From: Candidatus Tayloriibacteriota bacterium
GTDB lineage: Bacteria; Patescibacteriota; Minisyncoccia; Phycocordibacterales; PALSA-1337
Assembly: GCA_003151615.1 (NCBI GenBank)
Contig: PLXZ01000005.1
Location: forward strand, 1-62,505
Length of the DNA: 62,505 bases
Direction: 5' to 3'
The notes under the pieces are model-generated. The model saw only the letters and a list, made by a program, of their open reading frames with translations, searched no databases and was not told where the DNA came from. How positions within the stretch are numbered: position 1 is the stretch's first letter; each line of letters opens with the position of its first letter. A program made the translations under genes and the position numbers. Positions 19,230-41,287 of this stretch are shown in pieces.

Positions 19230-19241
19230 ATTTTTGTATTT

Positions 19242-22200: not shown

Positions 22201-24260
22201 TTGGCAAACGTGCTCGTCCCCGTCGTACTCGTCGCATTGATTGTTCCGAACGTTCCGGTTAAAGCGGTGAGTATTGAACCGGTGGTGAGAGACGTCGTGG
22301 CGGAGGAATTGGTGAAGTAGTTGACACCCCCCGCGGAAGTCGTGGCGATGACGTTGCCCGATGGGTCAACCGCAAGAAAAGTACTTGCAAGATTTGATAT
22401 ATTCAGTCCTTGTGTCGTTGTTGTGCCGATGACTGATAAAGCGGTTGCTGGGGTTGTTGTGCCGATGCCGACGTTGCCGTTACTGCTTCCATAAATGAAA
22501 TTACCTATATTTAATTGATTTGAACCAGTGGTGGAAGCAACATCTACACTATAACCAATCACGATATTTCCACTACCCGCCGTTTGGTTGAATCCAGCCG
22601 CCTGCCCAAGAAATACATTGTTTCCTGAGGCGCCAAGTAGATTAAACCCAGCATTTCTTCCTACAGCCGTATTGTTTGAACCAGTCGTTAAATTGTATAG
22701 ACAATTAAATCCGATACATGTATTGCTAAGTCCTAAAGTGGTACTGTGCATTGAAGCTGACCCAATTACGGTATTACCACCACCAGCGGCTCCGATAAAC
22801 GAGGGCATAGAGCCATTTCCAATGGCTGTGTTGTCATTTGATGAGGTTGCGTCAAATAATGCCCCATTTCCTATAGCCGTATTATTACTACCAGAAGTAT
22901 TGACTGGAAGTGAATACCTTCCAATTGCAGTATTGAATTGACCCGTTGATAATGCATTTAACGCATTTTGTCCAAACCCTGTATTATATTGCCCTGTTGC
23001 AGTTGTATTTCCACTACTGCCACCAAAATAAAAGTTTTGAAGCGTCGTGCTAGCTGTGATAGTTCTTGTTCCGTTAAAATCTATATACGAAGTGTTTCCC
23101 GAAACCCTGATATTTCCATTGACATCAAGTGCTTGGGCTGGTGCCGTCGTCCCAATGCCGACGTTGCCGCCGAAATAATTCGTCGCTGATGTGTTTGTGG
23201 CATTCACCGTACCGAATGTTCCTGTGAGAGCAGTCAAGATTGAACCGGTGGTGAGAGACGTCGTGGCGGAGGAATTGGTGAAGTAGTTGAAAATACCAAG
23301 TGAGGATGATGACGTCGTCCCGACAACGCCATTAGTTGCGAAGAGAATTCCGTTTAATGACGAAGCGAGGTTTGTCTGACCGTTAACCGTCAATGCGCCG
23401 GTCGCCGTCAGGTTGCCGCCGAACAAACTGTTCCCTCCGACCGAAAAAAGAGCGCCCGGGGTTGAACTCCCGACACCCACGTTGCCGCTCGGCAAAACAG
23501 TCAAAAATGAAGCGCCGGATGACGAGGCGACGGTGAACAATGTCGTGGTGGCGTTGGTCGTCGAACCTTCGACGGAGAGAAGTGAACCGGGTGTTGACGA
23601 GCCGATGCCGACGTTTCCGTTGGACAAGAGGGCAAACACGCTCTGCGAGGCCGCACCGAAAAATTCCGCTATTTTGCCGGCGCCGGTCTGAAGAATATTC
23701 AAAAATGTCGAGGCTGAACTCGTCGAATTCTGCTGGTCGTTGCGGATGAACTGCTTATCTGAAACTCCGTTCAAGGTCAATGCGACCGTCGAAGTTCCCG
23801 CAAACATTGCCGCGGGCACCGCGCCCAAAATTTTTCGCGGCGTCATTTCGCCGTCGTATGAAGGTGTCGAGCCCGTACCCCCGATGTTCACGCCCAAATA
23901 CAACGTCTGATTAAAATTTACATTCGTAAACGGCGTCGTCGATCCGAGCATCACGCTGAACAATCCATTCGTGATCGTCACGCGCTGATCCGTTCCCGAT
24001 CCGGTACAGGTCGTTCCGTTGTTTGTCGAAAAACAATCCGTCTCCGTCCAAATCGAAGCGCCTCCGGTTGGAACCGTGTACAAATTAAATTGGACATTGT
24101 AATTTCCGTTCGTCACCGCGACGCCCGACGGAGTGGTCAGTCGTCCTTGATAATTTATTTGGTTGTTGAAAGCCGCATGCGCGACATCGGTGGGAAGAGT
24201 AGCCCCGACTGCCAGTCCGAGTCCGACGAAGAAAATAATTGTGAAAAATAATTTCTTCAT
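19242..24260 (-). CDS. giant (1672 aa) secreted tail-fibre-like repeat protein with an intramolecular-chaperone (peptidase S74-like) domain
   Basis: Signal peptide MKKLFFTIIFFVGLGLAVGA from ATG 24260, followed by many GNVGIG(S/T)(S/T)TP repeats. SDQRLKTNITDLD..FGFIAQQVDKFAPNLV..YQGIIAPLVKAVQ lies at about nt 20100-20395. It is followed by ~285 aa of Ala-rich and then S/T/P-rich sequence. Confidence 0.75.
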   Translation of the reverse strand: MKKLFFTIIFFVGLGLAVGATLPTDVAHAAFNNQINYQGRLTTPSGVAVTNGNYNVQFNLYTVPTGGASIWTETDCFSTNNGTTCTGSGTDQRVTITNGLFSVMLGSTTPFTNVNFNQTLYLGVNIGGTGSTPSYDGEMTPRKILGAVPAAMFAGTSTVALTLNGVSDKQFIRNDQQNSTSSASTFLNILQTGAGKIAEFFGAASQSVFALLSNGNVGIGSSTPGSLLSVEGSTTNATTTLFTVASSSGASFLTVLPSGNVGVGSSTPGALFSVGGNSLFGGNLTATGALTVNGQTNLASSLNGILFATNGVVGTTSSSSLGIFNYFTNSSATTSLTTGSILTALTGTFGTVNATNTSATNYFGGNVGIGTTAPAQALDVNGNIRVSGNTSYIDFNGTRTITASTTLQNFYFGGSSGNTTATGQYNTGFGQNALNALSTGQFNTAIGRYSLPVNTSGSNNTAIGNGALFDATSSNDNTAIGNGSMPSFIGAAGGGNTVIGSASMHSTTLGLSNTCIGFNCLYNLTTGSNNTAVGRNAGFNLLGASGNNVFLGQAAGFNQTAGSGNIVIGYSVDVASTTGSNQLNIGNFIYGSSNGNVGIGTTTPATALSVIGTTTTQGLNISNLASTFLAVDPSGNVIATTSAGGVNYFTNSSATTSLTTGSILTALTGTFGTINATSTTGTSTFANAATFGGNVGIGSTSPFAALSVNAANGSGSGNGTDGLAVYGGTGGYSGSTFGSGGGITLVGGDTGSGAGGAGLATGGTVVIRSGNGGANGGSGGNGNHGGSLILSSGNGSNGVNSGGGGGNGGSISFTAGNAGTGGGSATAGTAGSLTFTAGSGASAGTSTPGGNITLNPGAIGSGSAAGNILLASSSGKVGIGTSTPGSLLSVAGTAQITATSTLTGIKLTNLSSTVLAVDANGNVIATTSSGGPNFFSNSSASTTLTTGSNLLAGIGTFGTIIATSTGTSTFAGNISISGATQLASNLNGLLWATNGLVGTTSTSSLGFTFGNSAWTIGNQTIYNATSTDRISIGTSTPYSKFFVLGTYGSTTPIFTIASTTSTAGATSSLLTVLSNGNVGIGSSTPFSALEAVGNGLFTGSFSANNLIAASTTATSTISGGLVVGNGGLTYDLSSTATSIQNLQMGNMSFDMDAGQVSWVDLPITTASATGTIESYSANLNGNPVLTIFGTADGQGNILTPSVNIGSSTAPNATLTVWATSTEPGFSVLSYASSSLFTVLNSGFVGIGTSTPGSALDVGGNVTDESVKGCNGGSGGLGTTASGTVYCEVSFSDQRLKTNITDLDAADSLNLINSLNPVSFYWKDPSIPGTNSMQEQFGFIAQQVDKFAPNLVGTTTSTYLTPDQTYYLNYQGIIAPLVKAVQAQQGEIMTTSSSTVQASTTLASLSAQLQAYSLALANATTTLSAQVSALTLSTAQLTASLASTSADIASSTAATLSTSDSFIQTIANAVIAMLQSSGQAINSAGSWVVNKMSASIVISNDVQTQTLETQSLTTQTASISDGLQMTDQATGYMYCVRLVEGEFAKVLGTCSSTASSTPTMMTVPDAPSTAPVTTPTPPPSAPVSTIDSGSDSTTTSIMASSTVSDVSSVTTAPAASSTPTSSTTPSITTPVISSSSPIVTASSSPTVAPTPTLSNPTSGNDSVASSTDDSGGN

Positions 24261-24261
24261 G

Positions 24262-24681
24262 TTATTGGCCGATGGTTGGGAACGGCTGGGCGATATTTGA
24301 AGGATTGTTTTCAAGGCCAGCCGTCGGATCGACCGTGTCCGAGAGGCTCGTATTCACCGGCATTGAATCCGGTATGTCCTTTGCAATCACTCCGCTGTAC
24401 ATTTCGTACATGCCGAGGGCGACCGCCGCCAAACAGAACGCCATGCAGAACATGAACCAGAAAAAAACAACTTTTATGTCGCTGAAAAAGACTTTTTGGG
24501 CCGGCGCAAAGTGTTGCGTCGTGAAGTATTCCTGGACCTCGCTTTTGCTCACAAACCAGTTTTTCCCAACTTTTCTGCCCTTGACCTTATTTGACCTAAC
24601 GAGCGCACCAATGTAGTCCGGATGATACCCGGAAATCGACCCCGCTTCCTTTAATGTTATAAAATCGTCAAATATGGCCAT
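24262..24681 (-). CDS. excisionase/MerR-like HTH protein with one transmembrane helix
   Basis: ITLKEAGSISGYHPDYIGALVRSNKVKGRKVGKNWFVSKSEVQEYF followed by the TM helix VVFFWFMFCMAFCLAAVALGMY. Its stop lies 1 nt before the start of the giant gene. Confidence 0.55.
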   Translation of the reverse strand: MAIFDDFITLKEAGSISGYHPDYIGALVRSNKVKGRKVGKNWFVSKSEVQEYFTTQHFAPAQKVFFSDIKVVFFWFMFCMAFCLAAVALGMYEMYSGVIAKDIPDSMPVNTSLSDTVDPTAGLENNPSNIAQPFPTIGQ

Positions 24682-24839: not shown

Positions 24840-26483
24840 CTACTCGTTTTTCAAATTAAGCACCAAGAGGAGAATTATTAAAATAATAATCAGTTCAAAA
24901 AGCATAAACAGGACCGGCAGAGTGGTGCATAGAAAATTATTACTGACATATGTCTGAAAAAGATAGCTGAACATGTTTTGCGGGACAAATGGAGGGGTCG
25001 GACCGGTCGCGATAAACGTTCCGGTGACGCGAACCCCGCTTCCCCACTGCAAAAAGTTTATTTCAAACGGAGTCGGACCGGTGGGAAGGATTGCCGGAAT
25101 GAAAGCTTCGAGCGATCCGTCATTTAATTTTTCAAAAATAAATGTCTGCTCCGCCGCAGTTCCCTCCGCGACCGTGATCGTCGTTTCTTCCGTATTTTTC
25201 GGAACTATTGACGCCGGAATTTCGACGAGCGTCGGCAGGTCGGCTTCAACCGTGACCGTCGAATTTATTTCCGGTATTAATTTGTTGTTTTGAATAAAAT
25301 TAATCAGGGAAAGAATCGATGAAGTCATTCCCGGCGTACCTCCGCCGAAAATCGGCGTGGATGTCGCGGGCGCCCCGGAAACGAACGGCAAACCGTATTC
25401 CAAAAGAGTTCCCGACGAATGCGCGCCCTCCGTATTGAACGCGAACGCGGAATAATAATATTCCTGTCCGGGAATCGCGCTCGTGTCCAAAACTTCTTCC
25501 TCCGGACCCTGATAGACGAGATACCCTTCGTTCGGATCGCGTGGGAAAAATCGCGTGCCGCGGGTAATCACGACGTAATCGAAATCGGGCTCGAACGGAT
25601 TGACCCAGGTCAGCAAAATATTTCCACCGAACGAAACTTGTCCGGCAAAATCGGTGACGTTGAGCGGGATGCTGTTGGAAATCGGCAATGTCCTGAAAGG
25701 ATATGTAGTGTAAATGACCTGCCCGTACTGGTCCGCTGCGCCGATGACCAAAACATAGTCCGTATCAGGCGCCAGATTATCCAATTCGACCGAATGAGGG
25801 ATGGAATAAGCCGTTTCCGAGCCGGAACCGCTTGCCCCGTCGGCATTAAGGCCCCAGCTCATGCTCGAAATCGACGGCAAGCTGGTATACCAGTTTATGA
25901 CGGCGCTCGAAGTGCCCGTTTCCGATGAAAAATCCTCGAAAAAGAACTGCGAAGGGCCCGACGGAGAGGCTATCGGCTGGGTCGGCGGGGTGTTTGGCGG
26001 CGGTGGCGGCGTTGAATTGAGATTGAACGTGGCGGTAATGACTTCAGTTGTCGTTGCGGTGCAGGTGCCGGTTCCGGGACAAACCGCCGGATCTCCTCCC
26101 ACGCTCCATCCGAAAAAAGTCGAACCCGGATCCGCGACAGCTATCAAAACGGTCGTACTTGCGTTGGGAATATTATTTTCAAAACAAGTCGACCCGCAAA
26201 TAATATTTCCGTCTGAACTTGTGACTGTACCCGAACCGGTGCCATTTTTAATGATGGAAATGCTGTAGGTCGTAGTACTTACCGGATTCAGAACCGTGAG
26301 CGTGATGACGGTTTCGCTCTGCGCGGTCTGCGCGTGAGCCGCCGAAATGCCGGCCATGCCAATAACGCCGGCAAGTGCCACACAAACCATTGCACACACC
26401 ATCGCGCGAGCCGGCGCGAAAAGATAGCGTCGGAATGTTGAATGAGATGTTGAACGCGGGGTTTCGTATGCTCGTTTAAACAT
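24840..26483 (-). CDS. membrane-anchored surface protein (B-repeat-like beta domain plus FN3-like module)
   Basis: Signal/anchor MVCAMVCVALAGVIGMAGISAAHA. GSGTVTSSDGNIICGSTC..STFFGWS, then a Pro-rich linker, an FN3-like module and a C-terminal TM (LPVLFMLFELIIILIILLLVL). The start is uncertain: ATG 26483, ATG 26519 or GTG 26570, all inside or touching IR element copy 1. Confidence 0.6.
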   Translation of the reverse strand: MFKRAYETPRSTSHSTFRRYLFAPARAMVCAMVCVALAGVIGMAGISAAHAQTAQSETVITLTVLNPVSTTTYSISIIKNGTGSGTVTSSDGNIICGSTCFENNIPNASTTVLIAVADPGSTFFGWSVGGDPAVCPGTGTCTATTTEVITATFNLNSTPPPPPNTPPTQPIASPSGPSQFFFEDFSSETGTSSAVINWYTSLPSISSMSWGLNADGASGSGSETAYSIPHSVELDNLAPDTDYVLVIGAADQYGQVIYTTYPFRTLPISNSIPLNVTDFAGQVSFGGNILLTWVNPFEPDFDYVVITRGTRFFPRDPNEGYLVYQGPEEEVLDTSAIPGQEYYYSAFAFNTEGAHSSGTLLEYGLPFVSGAPATSTPIFGGGTPGMTSSILSLINFIQNNKLIPEINSTVTVEADLPTLVEIPASIVPKNTEETTITVAEGTAAEQTFIFEKLNDGSLEAFIPAILPTGPTPFEINFLQWGSGVRVTGTFIATGPTPPFVPQNMFSYLFQTYVSNNFLCTTLPVLFMLFELIIILIILLLVLNLKNE

Positions 26484-26485
26484 CA

Positions 26486-26574
26486 CATCATGCAAATGCG
26501 AATTTAATATTTTCTTCATATAAAAAATGGCTCTAAATCGAGGTTGAAATTTTCGCATTCGCATTTGCACGATG
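26486..26574. repeat. inverted-repeat element, copy 1 (arms 26486-26503 / 26557-26574, 17/18 match, 53-nt core)
   Basis: CATCATGCAAATGCGAAT ... ATTCGCATTTGCACGATG. The core carries AAAAAATGGCTCTAAATCGAGG. Confidence 0.85.
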
Positions 26575-26651
26575 TTGAAGAAAAAAGATTGTTCGCCATA
26601 ATGAATAATGACGTCAATTATACTACAAACACACTTCGGCGAGTTCTCGTT

Positions 26652-28055
26652 TTAGAGGGTAATCGCCGTCACGGTGATCGTCGCTGTGTATGTTCCCGCG
26701 TCCTGCAGCTTTGCGCTTCCCTCTTTTGCCTCGACATCCAGGGTCGTCACCGTTCCTGTCGCGCTGTTCGGCAAGGATGACTGGGCTATTATTTTCGGCG
26801 ACGTTGAAAAACTGTCCCAGCAGGCGAAAGCCGTATTGTTCGAACCTATGTTGCAGGCCGATCCGTTGTTGATGTATTTTTCCACCGCGTCGGCGCTGTT
26901 GACGCTGAAGCCGAACGCCGACGTGTTTGAAGCTATGGCAAAGGCGTAGTCGGGCGTTGGGCTCGATACCGGCGTGTAATCGGAAAAATATGAGCCAGCG
27001 GCCGTTTGCATGGCCGGAGATGAGCTTGCCTGAACGGAAAGCGAATACCCTGCCGGATTGTCCGTTACGATATTGATGGCCAGGGTTCCCGTCGCCGTTG
27101 CGCTTCCCAAGCCGCTTATGTGTCCGAGGTTAAGCGGCGACAACGTTCCAATCGAAATGTACGAAGTGTACATCTGCTGATAGCCGGCGCTCAGGAAATA
27201 ATTGGTGCTCGACGAATTTCCCGTGGCCATTTCCCCGGCCGTATCCTGCTCCTGATATGACGTGCTCGTCGAATAGTCTCCGCCGAAATTGATGGAATTA
27301 ATCGTGATCGTGTAGGAAGGACTTGTCATTTCATTTGCCGAAAGATTGGCGTAATTATAAAGTTGCAGAACGTCCGTCGCCGACAATGCGCGATTGTACA
27401 TGTGCACATCGTCGACTGTTCCGGGAAAATAGTCGCCGGCATATGCCTGGTTGCGCCCGATATTAACGTCAACTCCCGAAGCGGCAATAGACCCGGTAAG
27501 TGTGCTGGAAGCCACCTGTACGCCGTTGATATATGCATACACATGACTGCCGTCGTAGACTCCGGTATAGAGATACCATTTGCCGTTTACCAATTGCTGG
27601 CTCCATGTCGCTCGGCCTTCGGCAGAACCGTTGCCGACGTCGAAAAATCCCGTAGCACCGCCGTTGTTGTACATGAGCTGAAAACCTTTGTTGTCCGAGT
27701 CAGTATGGTCATTGGCCACGATGCGGGGATTGTCGCCCGCGCCTACGTTGCTCGGCTTTATCCACGCCGATACGGTAATTGCCGAATAGTTGACTGTCAT
27801 TGCTGGCACGTCAAAGTATTGGCTCGTTCCATTGAATGAAAGCGCATAAGGGCCGATTTCCCCTGCGACATAGGAAGGAGTACTCACCGAGGTTCCCGTA
27901 TTCGCGGATCCGGAATAATCGATCACGTTGGAGCCGGCGCCTTCATCCATTTTCCACCAACCGACGAGCCCAGTCGAAATGTCGGCGTGCGCGCTGACGA
28001 AAGGCACGGCGAAGAAAACTACCGACAAAAATAATGGGACTGCTTTTTTCATCAT
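26652..28055 (-). CDS. secreted LamG-domain protein with a C-terminal beta-rich domain
   Basis: Signal peptide MMKKAVPLFLSVVFFAVPFVSAHA. LamG pattern GLVGWWKMDEGAG..VDDVHMYNRALSATDVLQLY. The C-terminus ends DAGTYTATITVTAITL. Confidence 0.65.
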   Translation of the reverse strand: MMKKAVPLFLSVVFFAVPFVSAHADISTGLVGWWKMDEGAGSNVIDYSGSANTGTSVSTPSYVAGEIGPYALSFNGTSQYFDVPAMTVNYSAITVSAWIKPSNVGAGDNPRIVANDHTDSDNKGFQLMYNNGGATGFFDVGNGSAEGRATWSQQLVNGKWYLYTGVYDGSHVYAYINGVQVASSTLTGSIAASGVDVNIGRNQAYAGDYFPGTVDDVHMYNRALSATDVLQLYNYANLSANEMTSPSYTITINSINFGGDYSTSTSYQEQDTAGEMATGNSSSTNYFLSAGYQQMYTSYISIGTLSPLNLGHISGLGSATATGTLAINIVTDNPAGYSLSVQASSSPAMQTAAGSYFSDYTPVSSPTPDYAFAIASNTSAFGFSVNSADAVEKYINNGSACNIGSNNTAFACWDSFSTSPKIIAQSSLPNSATGTVTTLDVEAKEGSAKLQDAGTYTATITVTAITL

Positions 28056-28080
28056 TCAAGAAATATTACTTTCTACCGCG

Positions 28081-29148
28081 CTATTTCTTCCGTCTGAATT
28101 CGAACCGGGTGAATATGAAGTAGACGAAGAGGGCTATGACAATGAGACCGGCAAGTATCGGCGCGACAATTTTCCATGGCAACACCCAATACGTTATCGT
28201 CTTCGTGTCAACCAATCCTCCGTAGCCGCGGTTCAACTGCAATGTCGCGGTGTATCTGCCAAATCTGAAATCGGTGTCGGGCCAATTGACTGTCAAATAC
28301 CGCAACGAATCAGGGAGAGCGAAGAACGCGTTCACCGGAATGTCGGCGACGTCCCTTCCAATCATGTTAGTCACGTGGATTTCTCCGTACGGAACGAGGT
28401 ATTCGTTGCCCGTGTTGTTGAAGAGCACTTTGAAGCCGTCAGGCGACTGTGAGTAGATCCATTGCGGAGTGTTGACGCGGAAATCGGAAACGGAACCGCT
28501 CGATGAAGCCACGCCCGCAACCTTTATGAAAAAGAGGACTGCCACCCGTGAAATGATGCGCGTGGTTGCCCCGTTGGCCGCCGTATTGATGTTGACTTGA
28601 GGCTCGTCGGAAACGATGACGGCGCTAAAATAACCGCCCGGTGCTATATTTTTTGGAACAGTCACGGTGACCGGCAAATCGATTCGGTCGCCGAAATTAA
28701 GCGAAAAAGCCGGTACGGCCGGAGTGATGTTGTCTTTGAACGACCACGGGCTTGCCTTGTCGCCGAGCAAAATCACCGGCTGGTCTTCGGTCTGCGACCC
28801 CTGGAAATCTTCGACTGATACGTTAAATTTTGTCGGCTTGCTTATGCGGCTGGTGACGGAAATGTCCTTCGTCACAGTGTCGCCCGGATTGACGTCGATT
28901 TCAATTTTGCCCGGCTCGACAATAAAGTCATTTTTATCGTCGACGCTCAGGTTTGTTATCTGCGGTTTAACGCCGGTCGGAAGGCTCGCTGTTGAAGACG
29001 AATTTACGGTAACGCCTGAAGATGTTCCCAACACCGGTCCGTTCTGCTGGGCCTCGGCAATGGAAAAAGCCCCGACAAAAAAACAAACAGCTGTGAGCGC
29101 GCTGGTCAGAATCTGTACGCCTCTGACTAATGTCTTTTTCTTGCTCAT
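28081..29148 (-). CDS. C-terminally anchored cell-surface protein with CscA-like (DUF916/DUF3324-type) architecture
   Basis: Signal peptide, two Ig-like halves (GGYFSAVIVSDEP, RVAVLFFIKVAG, LFNNTGNEYLVPYGEIHVTN), a C-terminal TM helix and an RRKK tail. The assignment rests on pattern and architecture only. Confidence 0.45.
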   Translation of the reverse strand: MSKKKTLVRGVQILTSALTAVCFFVGAFSIAEAQQNGPVLGTSSGVTVNSSSTASLPTGVKPQITNLSVDDKNDFIVEPGKIEIDVNPGDTVTKDISVTSRISKPTKFNVSVEDFQGSQTEDQPVILLGDKASPWSFKDNITPAVPAFSLNFGDRIDLPVTVTVPKNIAPGGYFSAVIVSDEPQVNINTAANGATTRIISRVAVLFFIKVAGVASSSGSVSDFRVNTPQWIYSQSPDGFKVLFNNTGNEYLVPYGEIHVTNMIGRDVADIPVNAFFALPDSLRYLTVNWPDTDFRFGRYTATLQLNRGYGGLVDTKTITYWVLPWKIVAPILAGLIVIALFVYFIFTRFEFRRKK

Positions 29149-29154
29149 GATTGA

Positions 29155-29832
29155 TTATAGGGCTGTCGCAGTCGCAACGATGGTTGCCTGATACGTCCCC
29201 GAAGGGATGAAGAAATTGTTCTGTTCAGCCGCATAGCAGACCGTTGTGGCCGTTCCGGCAAATGTCGTAGTAGCGGCACGGGTAGCTACCGTAACCGGAC
29301 TTGTCGTGAAGCCCTTGTATTTAAGGACGGTTGAAGTTGCATTGCCGTTTGTGCCTCCGCTGCAGGATGAAGTGGCATTTCCCCATGTCGAAGTCGCTGT
29401 GTCGCCTCCGAATGCCGAGTACCCGAACGCTGCGCCGTTGACGACGCTCCACGTGTTCGGCGCGCCGGTCTGGTAGTCAGCAATCGTCGCGCTGGTTGTC
29501 GTTGCCTGCATAGCTGGAGTCGAAGTGGCGTTGAGGGCGAGCGTGTAGCCGTTTACGTCGTTGGTAACGACGGTCCAGGTGGTGGTGCCGACGGCGCTGT
29601 TCTGCGCGACGCCGATGTGCGTGCTCATGCTTGAGTTTGCCGGAGCACTGATTGAAATGCCGGTATCAACATTGAGGGTAATAACGACGCTCGAAGTCGC
29701 CGTCGTTACCGCATAGGCATTCTGAGGCGAGGAAAACGAAACCGATGCCGCGAATACTGTCACCAAAACAAAAATTCCCGAAGCGCCAAGGAATGAAAGA
29801 ACTCCATACCAAACTTTTTGCGTGCGGATCAT
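29155..29832 (-). CDS. secreted beta-rich protein (WxL/SCPU-like C-terminal pattern suspected)
   Basis: Signal peptide, TTTWTVVTNDVNGYTLAL, and a C-terminus PSGTYQATIVATATAL that parallels the end of the 26652-28055 product. Confidence 0.45.
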   Translation of the reverse strand: MIRTQKVWYGVLSFLGASGIFVLVTVFAASVSFSSPQNAYAVTTATSSVVITLNVDTGISISAPANSSMSTHIGVAQNSAVGTTTWTVVTNDVNGYTLALNATSTPAMQATTTSATIADYQTGAPNTWSVVNGAAFGYSAFGGDTATSTWGNATSSCSGGTNGNATSTVLKYKGFTTSPVTVATRAATTTFAGTATTVCYAAEQNNFFIPSGTYQATIVATATAL

Positions 29833-29962
29833 TTTTTAGTAGTATTAAATAATAGAGGTAGTGGGCAAGCTCAACGGATGTATAATAGCACCATGCCGTA
29901 GGACTGACAAACCCTTTGAAGCCGCGCATGGGGATAAACCTGTGGATAAATATAAAGCAAAA

Positions 29963-30568
29963 ATGATAATTGGAATTGACGAAGTCGGACGAGGACCTCT
30001 TGCCGGTCCCTTGGCCGTGGGTGTTTTTGTAATTAAATCGGCCCGAAAAAGCGTCGACGAAAAACAAATTGCGAAATTATTTCGCGGCGTGAAGGAATCG
30101 AAGCAATTGTCCGAAGCCCGGCGCGAAGAATGGTTTGCCGTCATCGAAACCGCGCGCAACGCCGGCCTCGTCGATTTTTCCGTTCAGTTTCAAAGCGAAA
30201 AAAATATCGATTCGCGCGGCCTGACTCGAACTATCGATAAGGCGATATCATCGGCGCTTCGCGCCGTCAACGCTTCAAAAAACTCTCTCATCCTCCTCGA
30301 CGGCGGATTGCGCGCGCCGGCGCATTTTACAAACCAAAAAACAATCATTCGCGGCGACGAGAAAAAAATCGTCATCGCCCTTGCCTCGATCTGCGCGAAA
30401 GTCCTGCGCGATCGGCGGATGCGCGCGTTCGCAAAAAAATATCCACGCTACAGTTTTGAAATCCACAAAGGCTACGGCACCCGCGCGCACATCGCCGCAA
30501 TCCGCAAACACGGTCCGTGTCCCATTCATCGCCGCAGTTTTCTTAGAACAGTTCTGGCAAAAATTTAG
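29963..30568 (+). CDS. rnhB: ribonuclease HII
   Basis: MIIGIDEVGRGPLAGPLAVGVFV from ATG 29963, plus DSKQL-like GVKESKQLS and IASICAKV. Confidence 0.9.
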   Translation: MIIGIDEVGRGPLAGPLAVGVFVIKSARKSVDEKQIAKLFRGVKESKQLSEARREEWFAVIETARNAGLVDFSVQFQSEKNIDSRGLTRTIDKAISSALRAVNASKNSLILLDGGLRAPAHFTNQKTIIRGDEKKIVIALASICAKVLRDRRMRAFAKKYPRYSFEIHKGYGTRAHIAAIRKHGPCPIHRRSFLRTVLAKI

Positions 30569-30870
30569 GCAAGTTCATATTTTTCGTCAACGCGCCGGAT
30601 CAATTGTGTTTTTTCAAATGTTGCGAGCGTCCGATAGAGCGTCGCAGGATTCGGCAAAACATCGGGATATAAAGTCGCCCGAGGAAGCCGTTTAAAAAGC
30701 AACGCCCGTATTTCTTCAATCGAAACTGGTTCGGTTTTCTGTCGAAAAATATCGAGGACCGCCAGACGGTATGGAGTCCTCTTCAATCTGCACGCAAAAA
30801 GCGTTACCGAGCTGTCAAAACCCCTCGTCATCGCTATCCTCATTTTCTTTTTTTCTTCCAGCGTTTTCAT
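30565..30870 (-). CDS. Fur-family-like winged-helix protein, DNA-binding domain only
   Basis: RTPYRLAVLDIFRQKTEPVSIEEIRALL..PATLYRTLATFEKTQLIRRV. At 101 aa it has no metal-binding/dimerisation half. Confidence 0.5.
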   Translation of the reverse strand: MKTLEEKKKMRIAMTRGFDSSVTLFACRLKRTPYRLAVLDIFRQKTEPVSIEEIRALLFKRLPRATLYPDVLPNPATLYRTLATFEKTQLIRRVDEKYELA

Positions 30871-30970
30871 GATATTACACTAGATAGTACTTTAATTTTA
30901 AAATTTTGTTTCAGAGAAAATAGATCGAAGATACTGGAATGAAAGGTGCCGTGTGACTCTCTTTATTTCT

Positions 30971-31067
30971 TCAACATCATGCAAATGCGAAAAAGTACTT
31001 TTTGATGCCAGAAATATGGCTTAAAACCTCGACTCGAAATTTCCGATTCGCATTTGCATGATGTTGA
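30971..31067. repeat. inverted-repeat element, copy 2 (perfect 21-bp arms, 55-nt core)
   Basis: TCAACATCATGCAAATGCGAA ... TTCGCATTTGCATGATGTTGA. The core carries GAAATATGGCTTAAAACCTCGAC. Confidence 0.9.
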
Positions 31068-31133
31068 TATATTTTTGTTGTGCTAAGGGTTTCCCCTGGG
31101 CCACCTTTGCCTTAGCCGTCGACATCCATTTTC

Positions 31134-31142
31134 TGCTATAAT
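31134..31142 (+). promoter_or_regulatory. extended -10 promoter of dnaE (leaderless arrangement)
   Basis: TGCTATAAT, then 6 nt, then ATG 31149. Confidence 0.55.
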
Positions 31143-31148
31143 TCGCCC

Positions 31149-34100
31149 ATGCCTTCCCGCTTCGTACATCTCCACACCCACTCGCACTATTCCCTTTTGA
31201 ATGCCCTGCCGAAAGTCGACCAGCTCGTCGATGAGGCGAAAAAATACGGAATGTCCGCGCTCGCCTTGACCGACGCCGGAAACATGTACGGCACGATTGA
31301 ATTTTACAAGGAATGCAAAAAAGCCGGAATAAAACCGATCATCGGCGTTGACGCCTACGTTGCCGCACGCACCCGCACCGACATGCAGGCCGGCGTCGAC
31401 AATCGCCGGACGCGCCTCGTCTTGCTCGCGAAAAACATGACGGGCTACGATAATTTAATGAAGCTCGTGACGCGTTCATATTTGGAAGGCTTCTACTACA
31501 AGCCGCGCATCGACCATGAATTAATGGAAGTCCATGCAAAAGACCTCATCGCAATTGCGCCTTCATTTTCGAGCGAAATTTCGCAGGCACTCCGAAATCG
31601 CGACTCGGCAAAAGCGCGCGAACTCGTCGCTTTCCACAAAAAAACGTTCGAACATTTCTACATCGAAATCACGCGTCACCCCGAAATCGACGGACACGAA
31701 TCATTGATGCAGGAGCTCATAAAACTCGCAAAAGAAACCGACACGCCGATTGTCGCCGGACATGATGTCTATTATATACACCCCGACGACAAGGCGGCGC
31801 GCGACACGCTCATGCTCGTCAATACTGCGGGCGATGCGACTGACCGAGGAACGGCCGGAACAACCGGGATCGGAGGCGGGGACGACGAGGAAGATTTTTC
31901 ATTCATTTCTCCGGAACGCGCGGAGGAATTGTTCAGCGACATTCCCGAAGCGATTGAGAACACGGCAAAAATCGCCGAAATGTGTGACGCAAAACTGGAA
32001 CTTGGAAAATGGGTTTTCCCGAATTATATTTTGGAAAGCGGCCGCACCTACGACGACGAATTGCAATTTCTGGCGAATGAAGGTTTCGCAAAACGAAACG
32101 TGCCGAAAACAAAGGAAGCCGTCACGCGCGTCGAATATGAATTGAAAGTCATCCGCGACAAAGGCTACGCTCCGTACTTTCTCGTGGTGTCCGACCTGCT
32201 CAAATATGCTCATGACCACGGCATTCTCACCAACATTCGAGGTTCGGTCGCCGGATCTCTCGCGACATATCTGACCGGAATTACGAATGTGAACCCGCTC
32301 GAATACAAACTTCCCTTCGAAAGATTTTTGAATCCCGAACGTCCGTCCGCGCCCGACATCGACATGGACTTTGCCGACAACCGTCGCGACGAGATGATCG
32401 ACTATGTCCGGCAAAAATACGGCCACGACAATGTGGCGCAGATTGGTACTTTTGGAACAATGATGGCCCGCGGTTCCGTGAAGGATGTCACGCGCGCCCT
32501 CGGTTTTCCGTATGAAGTCGGCGACCGGATTTCTAAATTGATTCCGCTAGGGGCACAAGGGTTTCCGATGACCATCGACCGCGCCTTGAAAGAAGTCTCC
32601 GAACTCCGTTCAATATATGAGAACGAAGCCGACATCAAACGCATCATCGACATGGCAAAAAAAATCGAAGGTTGCGCGCGACACATCTCCGTCCATGCAG
32701 CCGGCGTCGTCATCTCGCCAAAACCTCTGACCAATTACACCCCGCTTCAGTACGATACGAAAGGCGAAAAGAAAATCATCACGCAGTATGACATGTACTC
32801 GATCGAGGAAGCAGGACTCCTCAAATTCGACTTTCTCGGAATTAAAAATCTTTCCATTTTGGCCGATGCCGTCGACCGCGTAAAAAAGATTGAAGGAATA
32901 GACGTCGACATCGAACACATTCCGCTCGACGACAAAAAAACATTTGAAATGCTCGCACGCGGCGAAACGATCGGTTTGTTCCAGCTGAACGGCTCGGGTC
33001 TCACGCGATTTCTCGTCGAATTGAAACCGACGACCATCCACGACATCAACGCCATGGTGGCCTTGTATCGTCCCGGACCTCTCGAAAAAATTCCCGACTA
33101 TATCGAGCGCAAACACGACCCTTCGAAAATCACCTATATGGACCCGCGCATGAAGGACATCCTCGACATGTCCTATGGCGTCATCACGTATCAGGACGAT
33201 GTGCTCATGGTTGCGATTAAAATGGCCGGATATTCGTGGCTCGAAGCCGATAAACTGCGCAAGGCCATGGGCAAAAAAATTCCCAAGGAAATGGAAGCCG
33301 AGAAGGAGAAGCTCATCGCCGGACTCATCAAAAACGGCCTGTCGGAACCAAAAGCGAAAAAAATGTGGCTACTCATCGAGCCGTTCGCCGCGTACGGATT
33401 CAACAAAGCCCATGCCGCGAGCTACGGCCGCGTCGCCTACCAGACCGCCTACCTGAAAGCCAACTTCCCCGCTATATATATGTCTGCAGTTCTTTCCGCC
33501 GATTCGGGCGACGTCGAAAAAATCGCCGAAACCATCGCCGAATGCAAACGCATAGGCATTCCGATCCTGCCTCCTGACGTCAACGAAAGTTTCAGCCAGT
33601 TTACGGTGATCAAGGGCGAAACCGGCAAATCATCAATCATCCGCTTCGGACTCGTGACGATTAAAAATTTCGGTCAAGGCATTGCGACCGCCATCATCGA
33701 CGAACGCAAAAAAACCGGCAAAGGGACGCAACCGCAAGGCGGCAAATTTAAATCGCTCGCCGACTTCATCGACCGGGTCAAGGACCGAAACTTGAATAAA
33801 AAATCGCTTGAAGCCCTCATCAAATCGGGTGCCATGGACAGTTTCGGCTATGACCGCGGCGTTTTGCTCGGCAATATTGAAACCCTGCTCGCCCACAACA
33901 AAGAGCGCGACAAGATGCCCGAAAATCAAGACTCACTTTTTGGACTGATGTCGGATACTTCAACCGTTCCGACACTCAAATTAGCCGACGTTCCGAATGC
34001 AACGCCTGCAGAAAAATTGGCCTGGGAAAAAGAACTTCTCGGCCTCTACATTTCCGGCCACCCTCTCGAAAAATATCAGGAAGCCATCAACAAACAAGCA

Positions 34101-34463
34101 ATCAATATTGCGAAAATAAAGGCTGCCCCGGAAGAAGCCGAAGAAACAGAAATAAAAAAACCGGTTACGCCAACCGTAAAAACTTTTGGAAGACCTGAAC
34201 GAAAACCTTCGGATGCCCCGACCATAATCCTCGCCGTCATCGTCGATGAAATCCGCCAAATCATGACGAAAAATAACGAGCCAATGCTCTTCATAAAAGT
34301 CAGCGACTTCACCGGCACAATCGAGGCTGTTGTCTTCCCGCGCGTCTACCGCGAATTCCGCACGGCCTTCACTCCCGATTCCTGCATCGCAATAAAAGCC
34401 ACTGTCTCCGAACGCAATGGCGAAAAAAGCCTCATCATTGAGAAGGTGAAAAAGTTGGCCTAA
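31149..34463 (+). CDS. dnaE: DNA polymerase III alpha subunit
   Basis: PHP N-terminus FVHLHTHSHYSLLNALPKV, ERPSAPDIDMDF, HAAGVVIS, GLLKFDFLGIKNLS, and a C-terminal OB fold. Confidence 0.95.
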   Translation: MPSRFVHLHTHSHYSLLNALPKVDQLVDEAKKYGMSALALTDAGNMYGTIEFYKECKKAGIKPIIGVDAYVAARTRTDMQAGVDNRRTRLVLLAKNMTGYDNLMKLVTRSYLEGFYYKPRIDHELMEVHAKDLIAIAPSFSSEISQALRNRDSAKARELVAFHKKTFEHFYIEITRHPEIDGHESLMQELIKLAKETDTPIVAGHDVYYIHPDDKAARDTLMLVNTAGDATDRGTAGTTGIGGGDDEEDFSFISPERAEELFSDIPEAIENTAKIAEMCDAKLELGKWVFPNYILESGRTYDDELQFLANEGFAKRNVPKTKEAVTRVEYELKVIRDKGYAPYFLVVSDLLKYAHDHGILTNIRGSVAGSLATYLTGITNVNPLEYKLPFERFLNPERPSAPDIDMDFADNRRDEMIDYVRQKYGHDNVAQIGTFGTMMARGSVKDVTRALGFPYEVGDRISKLIPLGAQGFPMTIDRALKEVSELRSIYENEADIKRIIDMAKKIEGCARHISVHAAGVVISPKPLTNYTPLQYDTKGEKKIITQYDMYSIEEAGLLKFDFLGIKNLSILADAVDRVKKIEGIDVDIEHIPLDDKKTFEMLARGETIGLFQLNGSGLTRFLVELKPTTIHDINAMVALYRPGPLEKIPDYIERKHDPSKITYMDPRMKDILDMSYGVITYQDDVLMVAIKMAGYSWLEADKLRKAMGKKIPKEMEAEKEKLIAGLIKNGLSEPKAKKMWLLIEPFAAYGFNKAHAASYGRVAYQTAYLKANFPAIYMSAVLSADSGDVEKIAETIAECKRIGIPILPPDVNESFSQFTVIKGETGKSSIIRFGLVTIKNFGQGIATAIIDERKKTGKGTQPQGGKFKSLADFIDRVKDRNLNKKSLEALIKSGAMDSFGYDRGVLLGNIETLLAHNKERDKMPENQDSLFGLMSDTSTVPTLKLADVPNATPAEKLAWEKELLGLYISGHPLEKYQEAINKQAINIAKIKAAPEEAEETEIKKPVTPTVKTFGRPERKPSDAPTIILAVIVDEIRQIMTKNNEPMLFIKVSDFTGTIEAVVFPRVYREFRTAFTPDSCIAIKATVSERNGEKSLIIEKVKKLA

Positions 34464-34474
34464 AACGCATAAAA

Positions 34475-34483
34475 TGCTACAAT
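34475..34483 (+). promoter_or_regulatory. extended -10 promoter of thrS (leaderless arrangement)
   Basis: TGCTACAAT, then 7 nt, then ATG 34491. Confidence 0.55.
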
Positions 34484-34490
34484 TTCCGCC

Positions 34491-35783
34491 ATGTCAAAGA
34501 ATACAAACGACGCAAAACCTGAAAATAAGCCCGAAGAAAACATAAAGGACCGCGACCATAAAAAACTCGGCAAAGAACTCGAGCTTTTCTATATCGACCC
34601 TGTTGTCGGCAAAGGCCTCCCCATGTGGCTACCAAAAGGCGCGATCATCCGCCGCGAACTTGAAAAATTCGTCGTTGAAGAAGAAACGAAACGCGGATAC
34701 GAACATGTTTCGACTCCCGACATTGCCCGTCTCGAACTGTATGAAAAATCGGGACACTACCCGCACTACAAGGATTCCATGTACGCGCCAATTGACATTG
34801 ACGGCGAAAAATTTATGCTCCGCCCGATGACGTGTCCGCATCATTTCCAGATGTATCTTTCCCAGCCGCGCAGCTACCGCGATTTGCCGATGCGCATTGC
34901 CGAATTGGCGAAATTATACCGCTACGAACAGTCCGGAGAATTGATGGGTCTCCAGCGCGTGCGTTCGTTCTGTCTTTCCGACGCGCACATTATATGTGCA
35001 AACGAAGAACAAGCCGTCGATGAAATCAGCATGGCCCTCGACCTCATTGAATATGCCTGCGGAGTATTCGGCCTCACATTCGGCGAAAATTATTCATTCC
35101 GTTTGTCCCTCGGCGACCGGGCTGCAAACAGTGAAAACAGCGAAAAATATTTTAAAAACGATGCGGCCTGGGAAAAGAGCGAGTCACTCCTGCGTGCACT
35201 GATGAAAAAGCGAGGCAAGCCTTTCATCGAAGCGAAAAACGAAGCAGCCTTTTACGGACCGAAAATCGACGTGCAGATGAAAAATGTTAACGGCAAGGAA
35301 GACACTGCTTTCACTGTGCAATACGACTTCTGCATGCCGGAACGTTTCGACCTTTCATATATGGGCGAAGACGGCAAAAGCCACCGCGCGTTCGTGGTGC
35401 ACCGATCTTCCATCGGCGCAATCGAACGCTTCACGGCCTTTCTCATCGAACGCTATGCCGGAAAATTCCCCCTCTGGCTCTCGCCGGTCCAGGCAATGAT
35501 TATCCCGATTGCCGGCGAACATCATGCCGAAGCAACTGCTGTCAACGACCTTCTCCGCAACCACAATATCCGAACGAAAATGAACCTTTCGACCGACAGC
35601 TTCGGAAAGAAAATCCGCGCGGCCAAAACCGAGCACATTCCCTACTTCATAATCATCGGTGACAAGGATCTCGCCGCCGGCAAAGTCACTCTCGAATCCC
35701 GCGATCTCGGCCAAATCGGTCAACTTGAAAAGGAAGCCGTTGTCATTCGTTTAGCCGAAGAAATCAAGACGAAGAAGCTCTAG
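34491..35783 (+). CDS. thrS: threonine--tRNA ligase, catalytic core plus anticodon-binding domain only
   Basis: DHKKLGKELELF, MLRPMTCPHHFQMY, RYEQSGELMGLQRVRSFCLSDAHI and FVVHRSSIGAIERF. At 430 aa there is no TGS or editing domain. Confidence 0.9.
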   Translation: MSKNTNDAKPENKPEENIKDRDHKKLGKELELFYIDPVVGKGLPMWLPKGAIIRRELEKFVVEEETKRGYEHVSTPDIARLELYEKSGHYPHYKDSMYAPIDIDGEKFMLRPMTCPHHFQMYLSQPRSYRDLPMRIAELAKLYRYEQSGELMGLQRVRSFCLSDAHIICANEEQAVDEISMALDLIEYACGVFGLTFGENYSFRLSLGDRAANSENSEKYFKNDAAWEKSESLLRALMKKRGKPFIEAKNEAAFYGPKIDVQMKNVNGKEDTAFTVQYDFCMPERFDLSYMGEDGKSHRAFVVHRSSIGAIERFTAFLIERYAGKFPLWLSPVQAMIIPIAGEHHAEATAVNDLLRNHNIRTKMNLSTDSFGKKIRAAKTEHIPYFIIIGDKDLAAGKVTLESRDLGQIGQLEKEAVVIRLAEEIKTKKL

Positions 35784-35837
35784 GTTACACGACGCGGCGC
35801 GATTTCTTTTGATTGTCCGCCCATAGCTTTAAACATC

Positions 35838-35930
35838 ACCATCATGCAAATGCGAATGCGAAAATCTTGGCTTATATTTAGAGCCATATTTTTTAGTAAA
35901 ATATTATTAAATTCGCATTTGCATGATGGT
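35838..35930. repeat. inverted-repeat element, copy 3 (perfect 20-bp arms, 53-nt core in opposite orientation to copy 1)
   Basis: ACCATCATGCAAATGCGAAT ... ATTCGCATTTGCATGATGGT. The reverse complement of its core aligns with the copy 1 core (TTAATA..AAAAA(T)ATGGCTCTAAAT..ATTTTCGC). Confidence 0.9.
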
Positions 35931-35982
35931 TAAGAAAAAGGAGCATCGCTTAGGTTACAGTAGCGAATATCATAAACAAAGC

Positions 35983-36008
35983 AAAAAGCACCCGTATGGG
36001 TGCTTTTT
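35983..36008. terminator. bidirectional intrinsic terminator between thrS and the convergent surface-protein gene
   Basis: AAAAAGCACCC-GTAT-GGGTGCTTTTT. Confidence 0.75.
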
Positions 36009-36032
36009 GTTTGCCGAATTTCGGCGTATCGA

Positions 36033-39679: not shown

Positions 39680-41017
39680 TTATCTTACTTCCCAGCCTTT
39701 TGTTTTGACTGCTTCATAGACCTTTTCCATGATCGCATTTGTTTCGACATCAGTGAGAGTTCGGTCAAAAGATTGGAACGTAATGCCGAAAGCAAAAGAG
39801 GTTTTTCCGTCTTTTGAAAATGTGTCGAAAGCGCGGTCGCCGATTACTTTCGCGGTTAACTCGCCCGCATTTTTTTGCAAAGAATCCGCGATAATTTCCT
39901 TGACTGTGTTTTCGGCAATTCCCTCCGGAACCCACACCGCGATGTCGCGACGAATGAACGGCTGAAGAGAGAATTTTTTGTATTCGACCGAGACTGCTTT
40001 TCCAAGATTGAGATCATCGTATGATTTTGGGTCGGGCAATGTTGAAATATATTGACCAAGATTGGTTTCGTACACGTCTGCATCGACTTTGTTTGAATAT
40101 ATGAGTCCGATAAACGGCATAAGCTGACCAAGTACGGAACTGATCTCATCGACGGCTTTTTTCAGTTTTTCAAGCGATTTTTCATCTTTTTTCTTGGTGT
40201 TTTTTACCCCGATGGCAAGCGAGATCTTCTCGCCGCTCGCCGGAAAAATCTTACCGATTTCAAACGCCCGTATGTCGTCGAGTGCCAGCAAATCCGCGTT
40301 TTTCGCATTCATGTCGATGGACTTTGCCATGCCCTCCGCCAAATTCGTGCGCAAATAATTTTTGTCGGTCGCGACGGATTTCTCGATTTCATAATCCCCT
40401 TTTGGCGTGAGGCTGTAGCCGTATATTTCGGAGAAACCTTCAGCAACAAGAATATTGCGGATTTTTTCGGAATAATAAAAAGTTTTTTCGATCACGGGCT
40501 TGAAGTCCTTATTCTTCGGCAAAACCGGCGCAATTTTGTCGTAACCGTAAATGCGGGCGACTTCTTCGGGAATGTCACGCCATGTCTGCAAATCGGCGCG
40601 GTCGGACGGAATGGAAAGAACGAACCCGGCATCTTTTTCCTCGACGCCGATATCCATGCTTTCGAGAATTGCCTTCATTTCAGCGACGGAAATATCCGAA
40701 CCAAGCGCTTCATTTATATCGGCGACTTTGACCGTAATTTTTTCGGCACGATGCGCGGGAACAACGGCCATTCCCGGTTTTCGCTTCAAATTGCAAATCG
40801 CGGAAACCTCCCGGGCAATGCCGTCGATAGATTTGGCGTAACCGGCACGGTCAGGCAAAACCTTTATATCGAGAATCGTGTCGGCATCGGCGCCGTCACC
40901 GACTTTTTCCATACCTTCAATTTCAAACGCATGAAAAGTAACCGCTTCGGCCAATTTTTCAGGCGAAGGCAGTTTGTCGGCAAAATAGCTCTGCAGTTGG
41001 TTATAGGAAACTTTCAT
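39680..41017 (-). CDS. pheT: phenylalanine--tRNA ligase beta subunit, short form (445 aa)
   Basis: The N-terminus MKVSYNQLQSYF..AEAVTFHAFEIEG resembles the B1/B3-4 region. The C-terminal FDX-ACB-like end is AFGITFQSFDRTLTDVE. It is adjacent to pheS. Confidence 0.8.
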   Translation of the reverse strand: MKVSYNQLQSYFADKLPSPEKLAEAVTFHAFEIEGMEKVGDGADADTILDIKVLPDRAGYAKSIDGIAREVSAICNLKRKPGMAVVPAHRAEKITVKVADINEALGSDISVAEMKAILESMDIGVEEKDAGFVLSIPSDRADLQTWRDIPEEVARIYGYDKIAPVLPKNKDFKPVIEKTFYYSEKIRNILVAEGFSEIYGYSLTPKGDYEIEKSVATDKNYLRTNLAEGMAKSIDMNAKNADLLALDDIRAFEIGKIFPASGEKISLAIGVKNTKKKDEKSLEKLKKAVDEISSVLGQLMPFIGLIYSNKVDADVYETNLGQYISTLPDPKSYDDLNLGKAVSVEYKKFSLQPFIRRDIAVWVPEGIAENTVKEIIADSLQKNAGELTAKVIGDRAFDTFSKDGKTSFAFGITFQSFDRTLTDVETNAIMEKVYEAVKTKGWEVR

Positions 41018-41046
41018 GGCTTTCGCGGCTTTATGTGGCCTCTATA

Positions 41047-41268
41047 TTAGCACGGAATAAATCGCGGCACTTTCTTGCCGTCAATCTCAACTTCTTCAAA
41101 CCACATTCGCGCAGGCCGGACCCAGAATTTTGAGGGTGCTGACAAATCCTCGGCGACCGCTTCGTAAACAACCATATCTTCCAGAGTTTCGCTGTGCTTC
41201 GCGACAAAATGAACCCGGTACAAAGTACCCTTTTTCGAGTGTTTGTAGATACCGGGTTTGATTTCCAT
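41047..41268 (-). CDS. DUF1653-like small protein
   Basis: GIYKHSKKGTLYRVHFVAKHSETLEDMVVYEA..WVRPARMW pattern. Confidence 0.6.
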   Translation of the reverse strand: MEIKPGIYKHSKKGTLYRVHFVAKHSETLEDMVVYEAVAEDLSAPSKFWVRPARMWFEEVEIDGKKVPRFIPC

Positions 41269-41287
41269 TTTTTTGCGGAATTATTTT

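Follow-up and report, generated by a model that had tools for sequence, protein, structure and literature searches.

The stretch from position 1 to 62,505 of contig PLXZ01000005.1 of a Candidatus Tayloriibacteriota bacterium, called the window in the following (the term means the whole stretch of DNA that was analyzed), contains three copies of a short intergenic element, in which two inverted arms enclose an AT-rich core of 55 nt. The cores belong to two homologous classes, class A represented by copy 2 and class B by copies 1 and 3. With modest confidence we interpret the copies as members of a lineage-specific family of palindromic repeats, similar to repetitive extragenic palindromic sequences (REP), bacterial interspersed mosaic elements (BIME), and miniature inverted-repeat transposable elements (MITE), in which the core is flipped by recombination between the arms and which is probably bound by a protein. 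A comparison of orthologous loci shows at least one in situ inversion of the segment that is enclosed by the outer arms.

In-Place Inversion Between dnaE and the Fur-Type Gene

The divergent region with the dnaE promoter and start on one side and a small Fur-type gene on the other is common to the window and to the related contigs L036 and L028 (handles of this type denote related contigs). Read from dnaE to the Fur-type gene, the element of L036 consists of left arm, core A forward, junction, core B forward, and right arm; that of L028 of left arm, core B reverse, junction, core A reverse, and right arm; and that of the window, i.e., copy 2, of left arm, core A reverse, and right arm. The orthologues of copy 2 are tandems, which have the same orientation in L028/L017 and the inverted orientation in L036. 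Between L036 and L028, the identity of the 124-nt interiors amounts to 76% when one of them is reverse-complemented and to 51% otherwise, and both the dnaE-side flank (AAATATATCAA / AAAAATATCAG) and the gene flanks hold their orientation. A match of the interiors only when flipped, with unchanged flanks, is the hallmark of one real in-place inversion across the outer arms. All three contigs retain the dnaE-side flank (type F3, see below); the F1 flank on the side of the Fur-type gene has been kept in the window and in L036. The single unit of the window results from a deletion between short direct repeats at the arm and the junction. Copy 2 is the ancient copy, which has been inherited vertically beside the Fur-type gene. 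The relation between copies 1 and 3 corresponds to one further flip.

A misassembly of short reads is an unlikely source of the two orientations, because the arms are far shorter than the k-mers used in assembly and because the segment has diverged by 24%. Both orientations at one locus were seen between lineages. Eight contigs of the L028 strain, each a product of different samples, show no difference over 730 nt and share one orientation, with the proviso that consensus assemblies would mask a minority state. Rapid switching is therefore not evident.

Anatomy of the Elements

According to an alignment of all units, the arm has a length of 17 nt and is built of TGCRAA hexamers (CATCA-TGCAAA-TGCGAA). 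Inspection revealed that the arms are direct hexamer repeats (TGCAAA-TGCGAA) and lack internal dyad symmetry. The elements contain arrays of hexamers as well as the 6-2-6 palindrome TTCGCA-AA-TGCGAA. The 17-mer CATCATGCAAATGCGAA occurs six times in the window when up to one mismatch is allowed, versus an expectation of 0.46, and all six occurrences are arms of the three elements. None of 100 shuffled sequences reached this number; the arms are non-random.

The core is framed by ...GCGAA and TTCGC..., and the spacing is exactly 55 nt in all three copies, which refines the 53-55 nt given in a preliminary description of the window. A central motif, AAA(A/T)ATGGCT(C)(T)AAA, is common to all three. 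Both core classes carry it in the form RAAAATATGGCTYWAAA, also written as ATATGGCTCTAAA, together with a 3' AAATTTYCG(C)A, which in class B supplies a third hexamer beside the arm.

Beyond the arms, every copy runs on with KTGAWR and then with one of three AT-rich tails, F1 (AAGAAAAAAG), F2 (ATGTTTAAAG), or F3 (ATATATTT). The pairings F2/F1, F1/F2, F1/F3, F1/F1, F2/F2, and F3/F1 were seen around the core, each type on either side, and flank type is independent of core polarity. Copies 1 and 3 are identical at 23 of 25 flank positions and at 41 of 55 core positions. The mixed combinations and a conservation above that of the core argue that the flanks are part of the element and not a chromosomal target, so that the previously proposed length of ~95 bp has to be extended to ~113-117 bp.

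Units occur singly or as A·B tandems, the junction of which is a 14-bp palindrome, TTCGCAAATGCGAA. Tandems of A and B are present in L013, L017/L028, L036, and L026, and tandem and single forms interconvert.

The preliminary description had located three copies in the window, two of them with perfect arms, and all of them are present there. Copy 1 (26475-26587, + strand; nhmmer E=2e-21) is a single B-type unit with its core forward on the + strand. It is composed of the F2' flank TTTAAACATCAC (26475-26486), the left arm (26486-26502), the core (26503-26557), the right arm (26558-26574), and the F1 flank TTGAAGAAAAAAG (26575-26587); its arms differ at one mismatch (CATCATG versus CACGATG, the variant of the right arm). 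Copy 2 (30961-31077, + strand) is a single A-type unit with the core forward on the + strand, pointing toward dnaE and away from the Fur-type gene. An F1' flank (30961-30974), the left arm (30975-30991), the core (30992-31046), the right arm (31047-31063), and the F3 flank TTGATATATTTTTG (31064-31077) follow one another, and the inverted repeat is perfect over 21 bp (30971-30991 / 31047-31067). Copy 3 (35828-35941, - strand) is a single B-type unit with the core forward on the - strand, composed of an F2' flank (35828-35839), the left arm (35840-35856), the core (35857-35911), the right arm (35912-35928), and the F1 flank GTTAAGAAAAAGG (35929-35941), with a perfect inverted repeat of 20 bp. 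A search with an nhmmer profile of the family detected no further copy in the window.

Copies 1 and 3 had also been described as having the same flanks and reverse-complementary cores. Indeed, their cores align only as reverse complements (102 nt, 80% complementary), their left flanks on the + strand are identical at 12 of 12 positions (TTTAAACATCAC), and their right flanks on this strand read (G)TTGAAGAAAAAAG and GTTAAGAAAAAGG, respectively. Likewise, the proposed similarity of copies 2 and 3 in the arrangement of core versus flanks holds, as copy 2 has a TTGAAGAAA-type flank on the same side, relative to the core, as copy 3.

Conservation and Distribution of the Family

In comparisons of L028 with the window and with L036, the arms are 94-100% and the correctly oriented interiors 76-78% identical, and the spacers beside the element have an identity of 0.57-0.63 versus a shuffle baseline of ~0.61. 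Arm and core conservation is far above that of the saturated neighboring spacers. Paired changes in the arms were found as well, namely CATCGTG...CACGATG in L012 and L028, and GAGAA...TTCTC in a diverged L028 member at the thrS site. These double changes in both arms preserve the inverted-repeat character. The inverted repeats, together with much of their sequence, are thus maintained, which could be due to selection or to conversion between the arms during flipping.

Genomes and metagenomes were scanned with an exact two-arm pattern, which demanded exact 11-mers in both arms. It retrieved no true copy from 185,579 species-representative genomes (five matches were unrelated palindromes) and had no match in viral contigs, plasmids, and phages. 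In JGI metagenomes four true contigs were found (L006/L012, L013, and L017); further copies thus exist, and no autonomous partner with these ends came to light. Altogether, family members outside the window are present in L012/L006, L013, L017, and L026-L036 (nhmmer E 1e-16 to 1e-21). A diverged member lies in L028 at 4143-4225 (E=2e-5), downstream of thrS and at the site of copy 3. The relatives L020-L024, the dnaE of which is 78-83% identical to that of the window among the homologues listed, contain no copy within ~20 kb around dnaE. Homologues of dnaE and thrS place the window in the Patescibacteria, among Paceibacteria-like genomes. Within the Patescibacteria, which belong to the Candidate Phyla Radiation (CPR), the family occurs in a narrow clade only. 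A literature search for invertons or MITEs in Patescibacteria yielded nothing relevant, and the family has not been catalogued previously.

The Linked Fur-Type Gene

The gene diverging from dnaE (30565-30870, - strand) encodes a stand-alone DNA-binding winged-helix protein of the Fur family with 101 aa (Pfam FUR, 24.8 bits). It covers only positions 4-63 of the 121 positions of the Pfam profile, which is the N-terminal DNA-binding part, and its predicted structure (pLDDT 75) has Foldseek matches almost exclusively to DNA-binding domains of Fur, PerR, Zur, Nur, and Mur. According to both analyses the protein lacks the dimerization and metal-sensing domain. The family comprises three other clusters at 90% identity and one cluster at 50% identity among 1.84 billion representatives; the distribution of the protein is as narrow as that of the element. 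A dN/dS of ~0.1, at a dS of at least 1, points to purifying selection with saturated synonymous sites.

Every contig with a homologue (L026/L027, L028-L035, and L036) has an element 105-120 nt upstream of the Fur-type gene, and, the window included, this applies to four of the four lineages that carry the gene. In L026 the gene is located after thrS, not beside dnaE, and the linkage to the element is still kept. No other gene is invariably accompanied by an element. Relatives within the Fur family read hexamer or 7-1-7 arrays.

The Sites of Copies 1 and 3

The genomic contexts had been given as the front of a surface-protein gene, a divergent region before dnaE, and a position after thrS, and all three assignments are correct. 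At copy 1, the surface-protein gene (24840-26483, - strand; 547 aa) is 80.8% identical to its L028 orthologue. Its start codon (ATG 26483-26481) falls within the F2 flank of copy 1, and 3 nt separate it from the base of the stem. A conserved promoter-like box, TTGTAGTATAATTGACG (26612-26628, - strand), which includes a TATAAT at 26617-26622, is parted from the open reading frame (ORF) by the element. A likely ancestral start, ATGGCGAACAAT, is located at 26599-26588, between the box and copy 1. In L028 the box TGTAGTATAATTGACG is followed by the start of the orthologue 4 nt further on, with no element in between. Removal of the 113 nt from 26475 to 26587 in silico reopens a frame of 548 codons (MANN|RAYETPRS...). 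The conserved promoter is the stronger argument for an insertion, because restoration of the frame has a prior of one in three. As the closest syntenic relative, L028, has no element there, copy 1 looks like an insertion between promoter and gene.

Several other features of this region were observed. Genes appear to be leaderless or nearly so: in dnaE, the surface-protein gene, and several genes on related contigs, a TGnTATAAT-like box precedes the ATG by 3-17 nt (31135-31143 and 26612-26628 in the window; L006, L012, and L013). Upstream of copy 1, at 17079-24314, two very large, repeat-rich surface proteins are encoded, one of 716 aa with three Laminin_G_3 domains and one of 1690 aa with a Peptidase_S74 chaperone domain, and repeated DNA (families D1-D6) is found within both genes. 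A protein of 139 aa with a weak match to HTH_17 (excisionase/MerR-type helix-turn-helix; 24.6 bits, below the cutoff), which is not a recombinase, is encoded at 24262-24681, immediately downstream of the surface-protein gene; L020 has one in a similar place.

Copy 3 sits between the stop codon of thrS (35783) and a canonical bidirectional intrinsic terminator (35982-36009), which is conserved with L028. Since this terminator follows, copy 3 is not itself the terminator. The block of dnaE (31149-34463) and thrS (34491-35783) on the + strand (31149-35783) is bracketed by copies 2 and 3, which are mutually inverted. At the site of copy 3, L028 has its diverged member and L026 has a tandem element together with the Fur-type gene. 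L025, the thrS of which is 91% identical, has only an unrelated hairpin there. Empty sites, the existence of which had been raised earlier, were thus found for copy 1 in L028 and for copy 3 in L025. The thrS of the window is of a short type of 430 aa, 89.5% identical to that of L020 and 91% to that of L025, but only 52.6% identical to that of L028; the thrS of L028 and L026 encodes 598 aa (~53%). In contrast, nearly all other comparable genes of the region are closest to L028, not to L020. The thrS of the window therefore looks like a xenologous replacement, which is bounded downstream by copy 3.

The possibility that copy 3 is the remnant of a module of element plus Fur-type gene was rejected, as its surroundings matched the upstream and gene regions of the Fur-type gene no better than shuffled sequences (p 0.02-0.8). 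Unrelated long hairpins with stems of 15-22 bp, loops of ~66-75 nt, and no Rfam match are present at the position of copy 3 in distant relatives (L020, 12780-12925; L025, 1905-2047), and the site after thrS seems to be prone to palindromes with large loops.

Proposed Mechanism and Alternative Explanations

We propose that flipping would occur by recombination or template switching between the arms, as a sporadic event and not as a rapid programmed switch. At other sites copies are gained or lost. The arms would be recognized by a sequence-specific protein, because arm sequence and central motif are strongly conserved across lineages, and the best candidate would be the linked Fur-type protein. 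When transcribed, as is probably the case for copy 1 in a 5' leader and for copy 3 in a 3' untranslated region (UTR), the 20-bp stem would probably affect mRNA processing or translation, in the manner of REP and Correia elements.

Several points weigh against this proposal. The Fur-type gene and the RNase HII gene give different nearest neighbors among the window, L036, and L028; as marker identities leave the order of the three undecided, the number of inversions at the Fur locus is one or two. The linkage to the Fur-type gene could be positional and not functional, because rearrangement breaks inside elements would keep the neighboring gene adjacent. The window contains no stand-alone arm or operator sites elsewhere, which would be unusual for the regulon of a regulator, and a distance of 105-120 nt to the downstream Fur start places the element off the usual operator position. 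The high conservation of the arms may reflect concerted evolution and exchange between lineages instead of selection. Finally, the copy number and the presence of a recombinase, a REP-associated tyrosine transposase (RAYT), or an insertion sequence (IS) were judged from the 62.5-kb window and the related loci, which provide only about eight independent loci.

The preliminary description had offered two readings, an invertible DNA switch and a MITE-like element. Of the former, the flip of the core between the arms has been borne out by the lineage comparison at the dnaE-Fur locus; the notion of a switch has not, as no invertase was found in the window and in ~150 kb of related loci, and no promoter beyond chance in the core. 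Programmed phase variation, in which a site-specific recombinase encoded elsewhere would flip the cores of such invertons and thereby change the expression of neighbors (at copy 1 that of the surface protein, at copy 2 that of the Fur-like regulator or of dnaE), is in our opinion unlikely. It would agree with the real inversion at an orthologous locus, with a copy abutting a surface-protein gene, and with near-perfect inverted repeats in several copies with the same arms, as in Mpi-type global invertase systems, and the size fits, given that more than 75% of the invertons detected by PhaseFinder are shorter than 300 bases (PMC11602134). However, a Pfam scan of the ~47 ORFs of the window revealed no recombinase or transposase, as had been noticed before, and no such Pfam family was found among the called genes of the related loci (~150 kb). 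A consensus scan for promoters in the cores gave nothing beyond chance, and no core contains a TGnTATAAT-like box. Copy 3, between a stop codon and a terminator, has nothing to switch, the eight L028-strain assemblies are identical and in one orientation, and the arms lack the internal dyad expected of a recombinase core site. Furthermore, the spacings at which enzymes of the Cre or FLP type are known to achieve synapsis exceed the 55 nt of the spacer. Integron attC sites were considered and rejected as well: the flank ends match RYYYAAC / GTTRRRY at no more than 6 of 7 positions and inconsistently, the neighbors are housekeeping genes in mixed orientation, the window contains no integrase, and inspection for attC, dif, or recombinase core-site anatomy gave no consistent match.

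A bolder idea, which we regard as doubtful, is that of a miniature DNA switch, in which the Fur-type protein would read the hexamer arms and, together with a host recombinase or hairpin strand switching, would set the orientation of the 55-124-nt core, thereby reversibly tuning its own gene, dnaE, and the cell-surface protein.

It is quite improbable that the elements are fixed cis-regulatory sites, an array of operators for the neighboring Fur-type regulator, which would serve autoregulation and a small regulon, with no mobility and with incidental inversions. The strict linkage to the gene in four lineages, at constant spacing and even after relocation, would be explained, as would the constraint on arms and core, and the hexamer arrays and the 6-2-6 palindrome resemble the logic of Fur, Zur, and PerR boxes. 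Yet no arm is found as a simple operator on its own, the likely promoter is preceded and not covered by the element, no gene follows downstream of copy 3, copy 1 looks like an insertion by which a promoter was displaced, and the protein is devoid of the dimerization and metal-sensing domain.

An equally small chance is given to a structured RNA element, i.e., a small RNA, a terminator, or a UTR hairpin that acts in the transcript. The stems of copies 2 and 3 are very stable (z-scores -6.8 to -8.3), the arm changes are compensatory, the arm mismatch of copy 1 would be a G·U pair on the probably transcribed strand, and copies 1 and 3 lie within probable transcripts. On the other hand, Rfam gave no match at the gathering threshold in the window and seven related loci, and an RNAalifold consensus of 13 units pairs the arms only, with neither conserved pairing nor covariation in the core. 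The orientation relative to transcription varies (forward in L013, reverse in copies 1 and 3), copy 2 and the elements of L012 and L036 lie in divergent promoter regions, and the inversion at a conserved locus would swap the RNA strand. An intrinsic terminator was rejected, because its loop would be much too large, the A- and T-rich flanks are not consistently oriented with respect to transcription, and a canonical terminator follows copy 3. A micropeptide was rejected, too: the reverse frame of the B core (MQMRMRK...NSHLHD) is open in 5 of 6 cases and has a stop in the conserved L028 copy, and the A cores are stopped.

Last, a classical non-autonomous MITE, mobilized by a transposase in trans and inserted in either orientation into a preferred target that provides the shared flanks, is very improbable, for although terminal inverted repeats, small size, several copies, and presence or absence at syntenic sites (copy 1 versus L028, copy 3 versus L025) would fit, this other reading of the preliminary description leaves the flipped cores unexplained, in particular the inverted interior at the dnaE-Fur locus with flanks in place, at least three flank types occur in all combinations on both sides and are better conserved than the core, no direct repeat that could be a target-site duplication abuts any copy, with or without the F flanks (the 9-bp repeat TAGGTTACA that surrounds copy 3 does not adjoin the ends of the element), and pattern searches of genomes, metagenomes, viruses, plasmids, and phages retrieved no IS with these ends, the matches being small elements only.

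Comparison With Known Systems

The proposed palindromic repeat family has much in common with the BIME, also called repetitive IHF-binding palindromic elements (RIP), and the REP of enterobacteria. Both are intergenic mosaics of ~100 bp, in which two inverted arms enclose a linker with a conserved central motif. In both, linkers and flanks exist as alternative modules, tandem numbers vary, and the elements occur in 3' UTRs as well as between cistrons or divergent genes. Differences are that the arms described here are not palindromic REP units, that the sequences are unrelated and have no IHF consensus, that the copy number seen is small, that the host belongs to the CPR, and that core inversion is documented.

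In the REPIN-RAYT system, two inverted repeats and a spacer also form a long hairpin, and vertical inheritance together with a single-copy gene flanked by repeats and persistence in one lineage have been described (PMC3116915, PMC3337134). Unlike in that system, the linked gene encodes a 101-aa Fur-type DNA-binding domain instead of a Y1/HUH tyrosine transposase, the hairpin loop comprises 55-124 nt instead of a few bases, and the window contains neither a Y1_Tnp domain nor a RAYT. The Correia repeat-enclosed elements, which are MITEs of Neisseria, are similar in size (~100-150 bp), terminal inverted repeats (~26 bp in Correia), internal variants, insertion beside gene starts with altered 5' leaders, and a stem that is a potential substrate of RNase III, a gene for which is present in the window at 15058-15765. 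In contrast, the TA target duplication and the hundreds of copies of the Correia elements were not seen here.

Invertons such as fimS and the Mpi-controlled promoters of Bacteroides (PMC11602134) share the short inverted repeats that bracket a segment found both ways, the same repeats at several loci, and a copy beside a surface-protein gene. In the present case, however, neither a recombinase nor a promoter was found, the invertible part has only 55 or 124 nt, and the two orientations occur between lineages and not within a population. Another parallel is provided by the small inversions associated with hairpins in plastids, in which the loop flips recurrently without a dedicated enzyme (Kelchner and Wendel 1996, summarized in PMC12371153). 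There, too, it is the loop between short inverted repeats that changes its orientation, with the flanks left as they were and the stems preserved (PMC12371153). The plastid inversions are recurrent, compared to one or two flips at one locus and one between paralogous copies in our case, and they are typically 4-50 bp long, unique, and non-repeated (PMC12371153), in contrast to a conserved sequence with a loop of 55-124 nt in a dispersed repeat family of a bacterium.

Further Observations in the Window

Imperfect inverted repeats of ~170 nt are located at 56251-56421 and 62333-62505 (best 55-nt block 87% complementary) and flank a surface protein of 1507 aa with fn3 and peptidoglycan-binding domains (56707-61230) and an ORF of 240 aa. 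The positions 61978-62027 / 62247-62296 also belong to this arrangement, and a 50-nt direct repeat (92%) is located just inside. The right ~170-nt repeat runs past the end of the window, and the region could represent a further invertible or duplicated segment of much larger size. At 39680-42010, pheT looks short or split (445 aa and an ORF of 123 aa, versus 645-655 aa in L020 and L021) and pheS encodes only 240 aa, possibly due to a frameshift, a split gene, or lineage-specific reduction.

Significance

Few repeat families or regulatory DNA elements have been described from the tiny genomes of Patescibacteria. The family presented here is a clean natural case of a short segment of a bacterial chromosome that turns over on the spot between inverted repeats, and its ancestral flanks can still be read. 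The repeat and the single-copy DNA-binding gene are a candidate cognate pair, in parallel to REPIN-RAYT but without a transposase. Copies border an apparently replaced thrS and a relocated gene block, which hints at a part of the elements in local rearrangement. Copy 1 lies between the promoter and the surface-protein gene of a probable episymbiont and could change its expression. If the flipping were programmed, this would be the first phase-variation system described in Patescibacteria.

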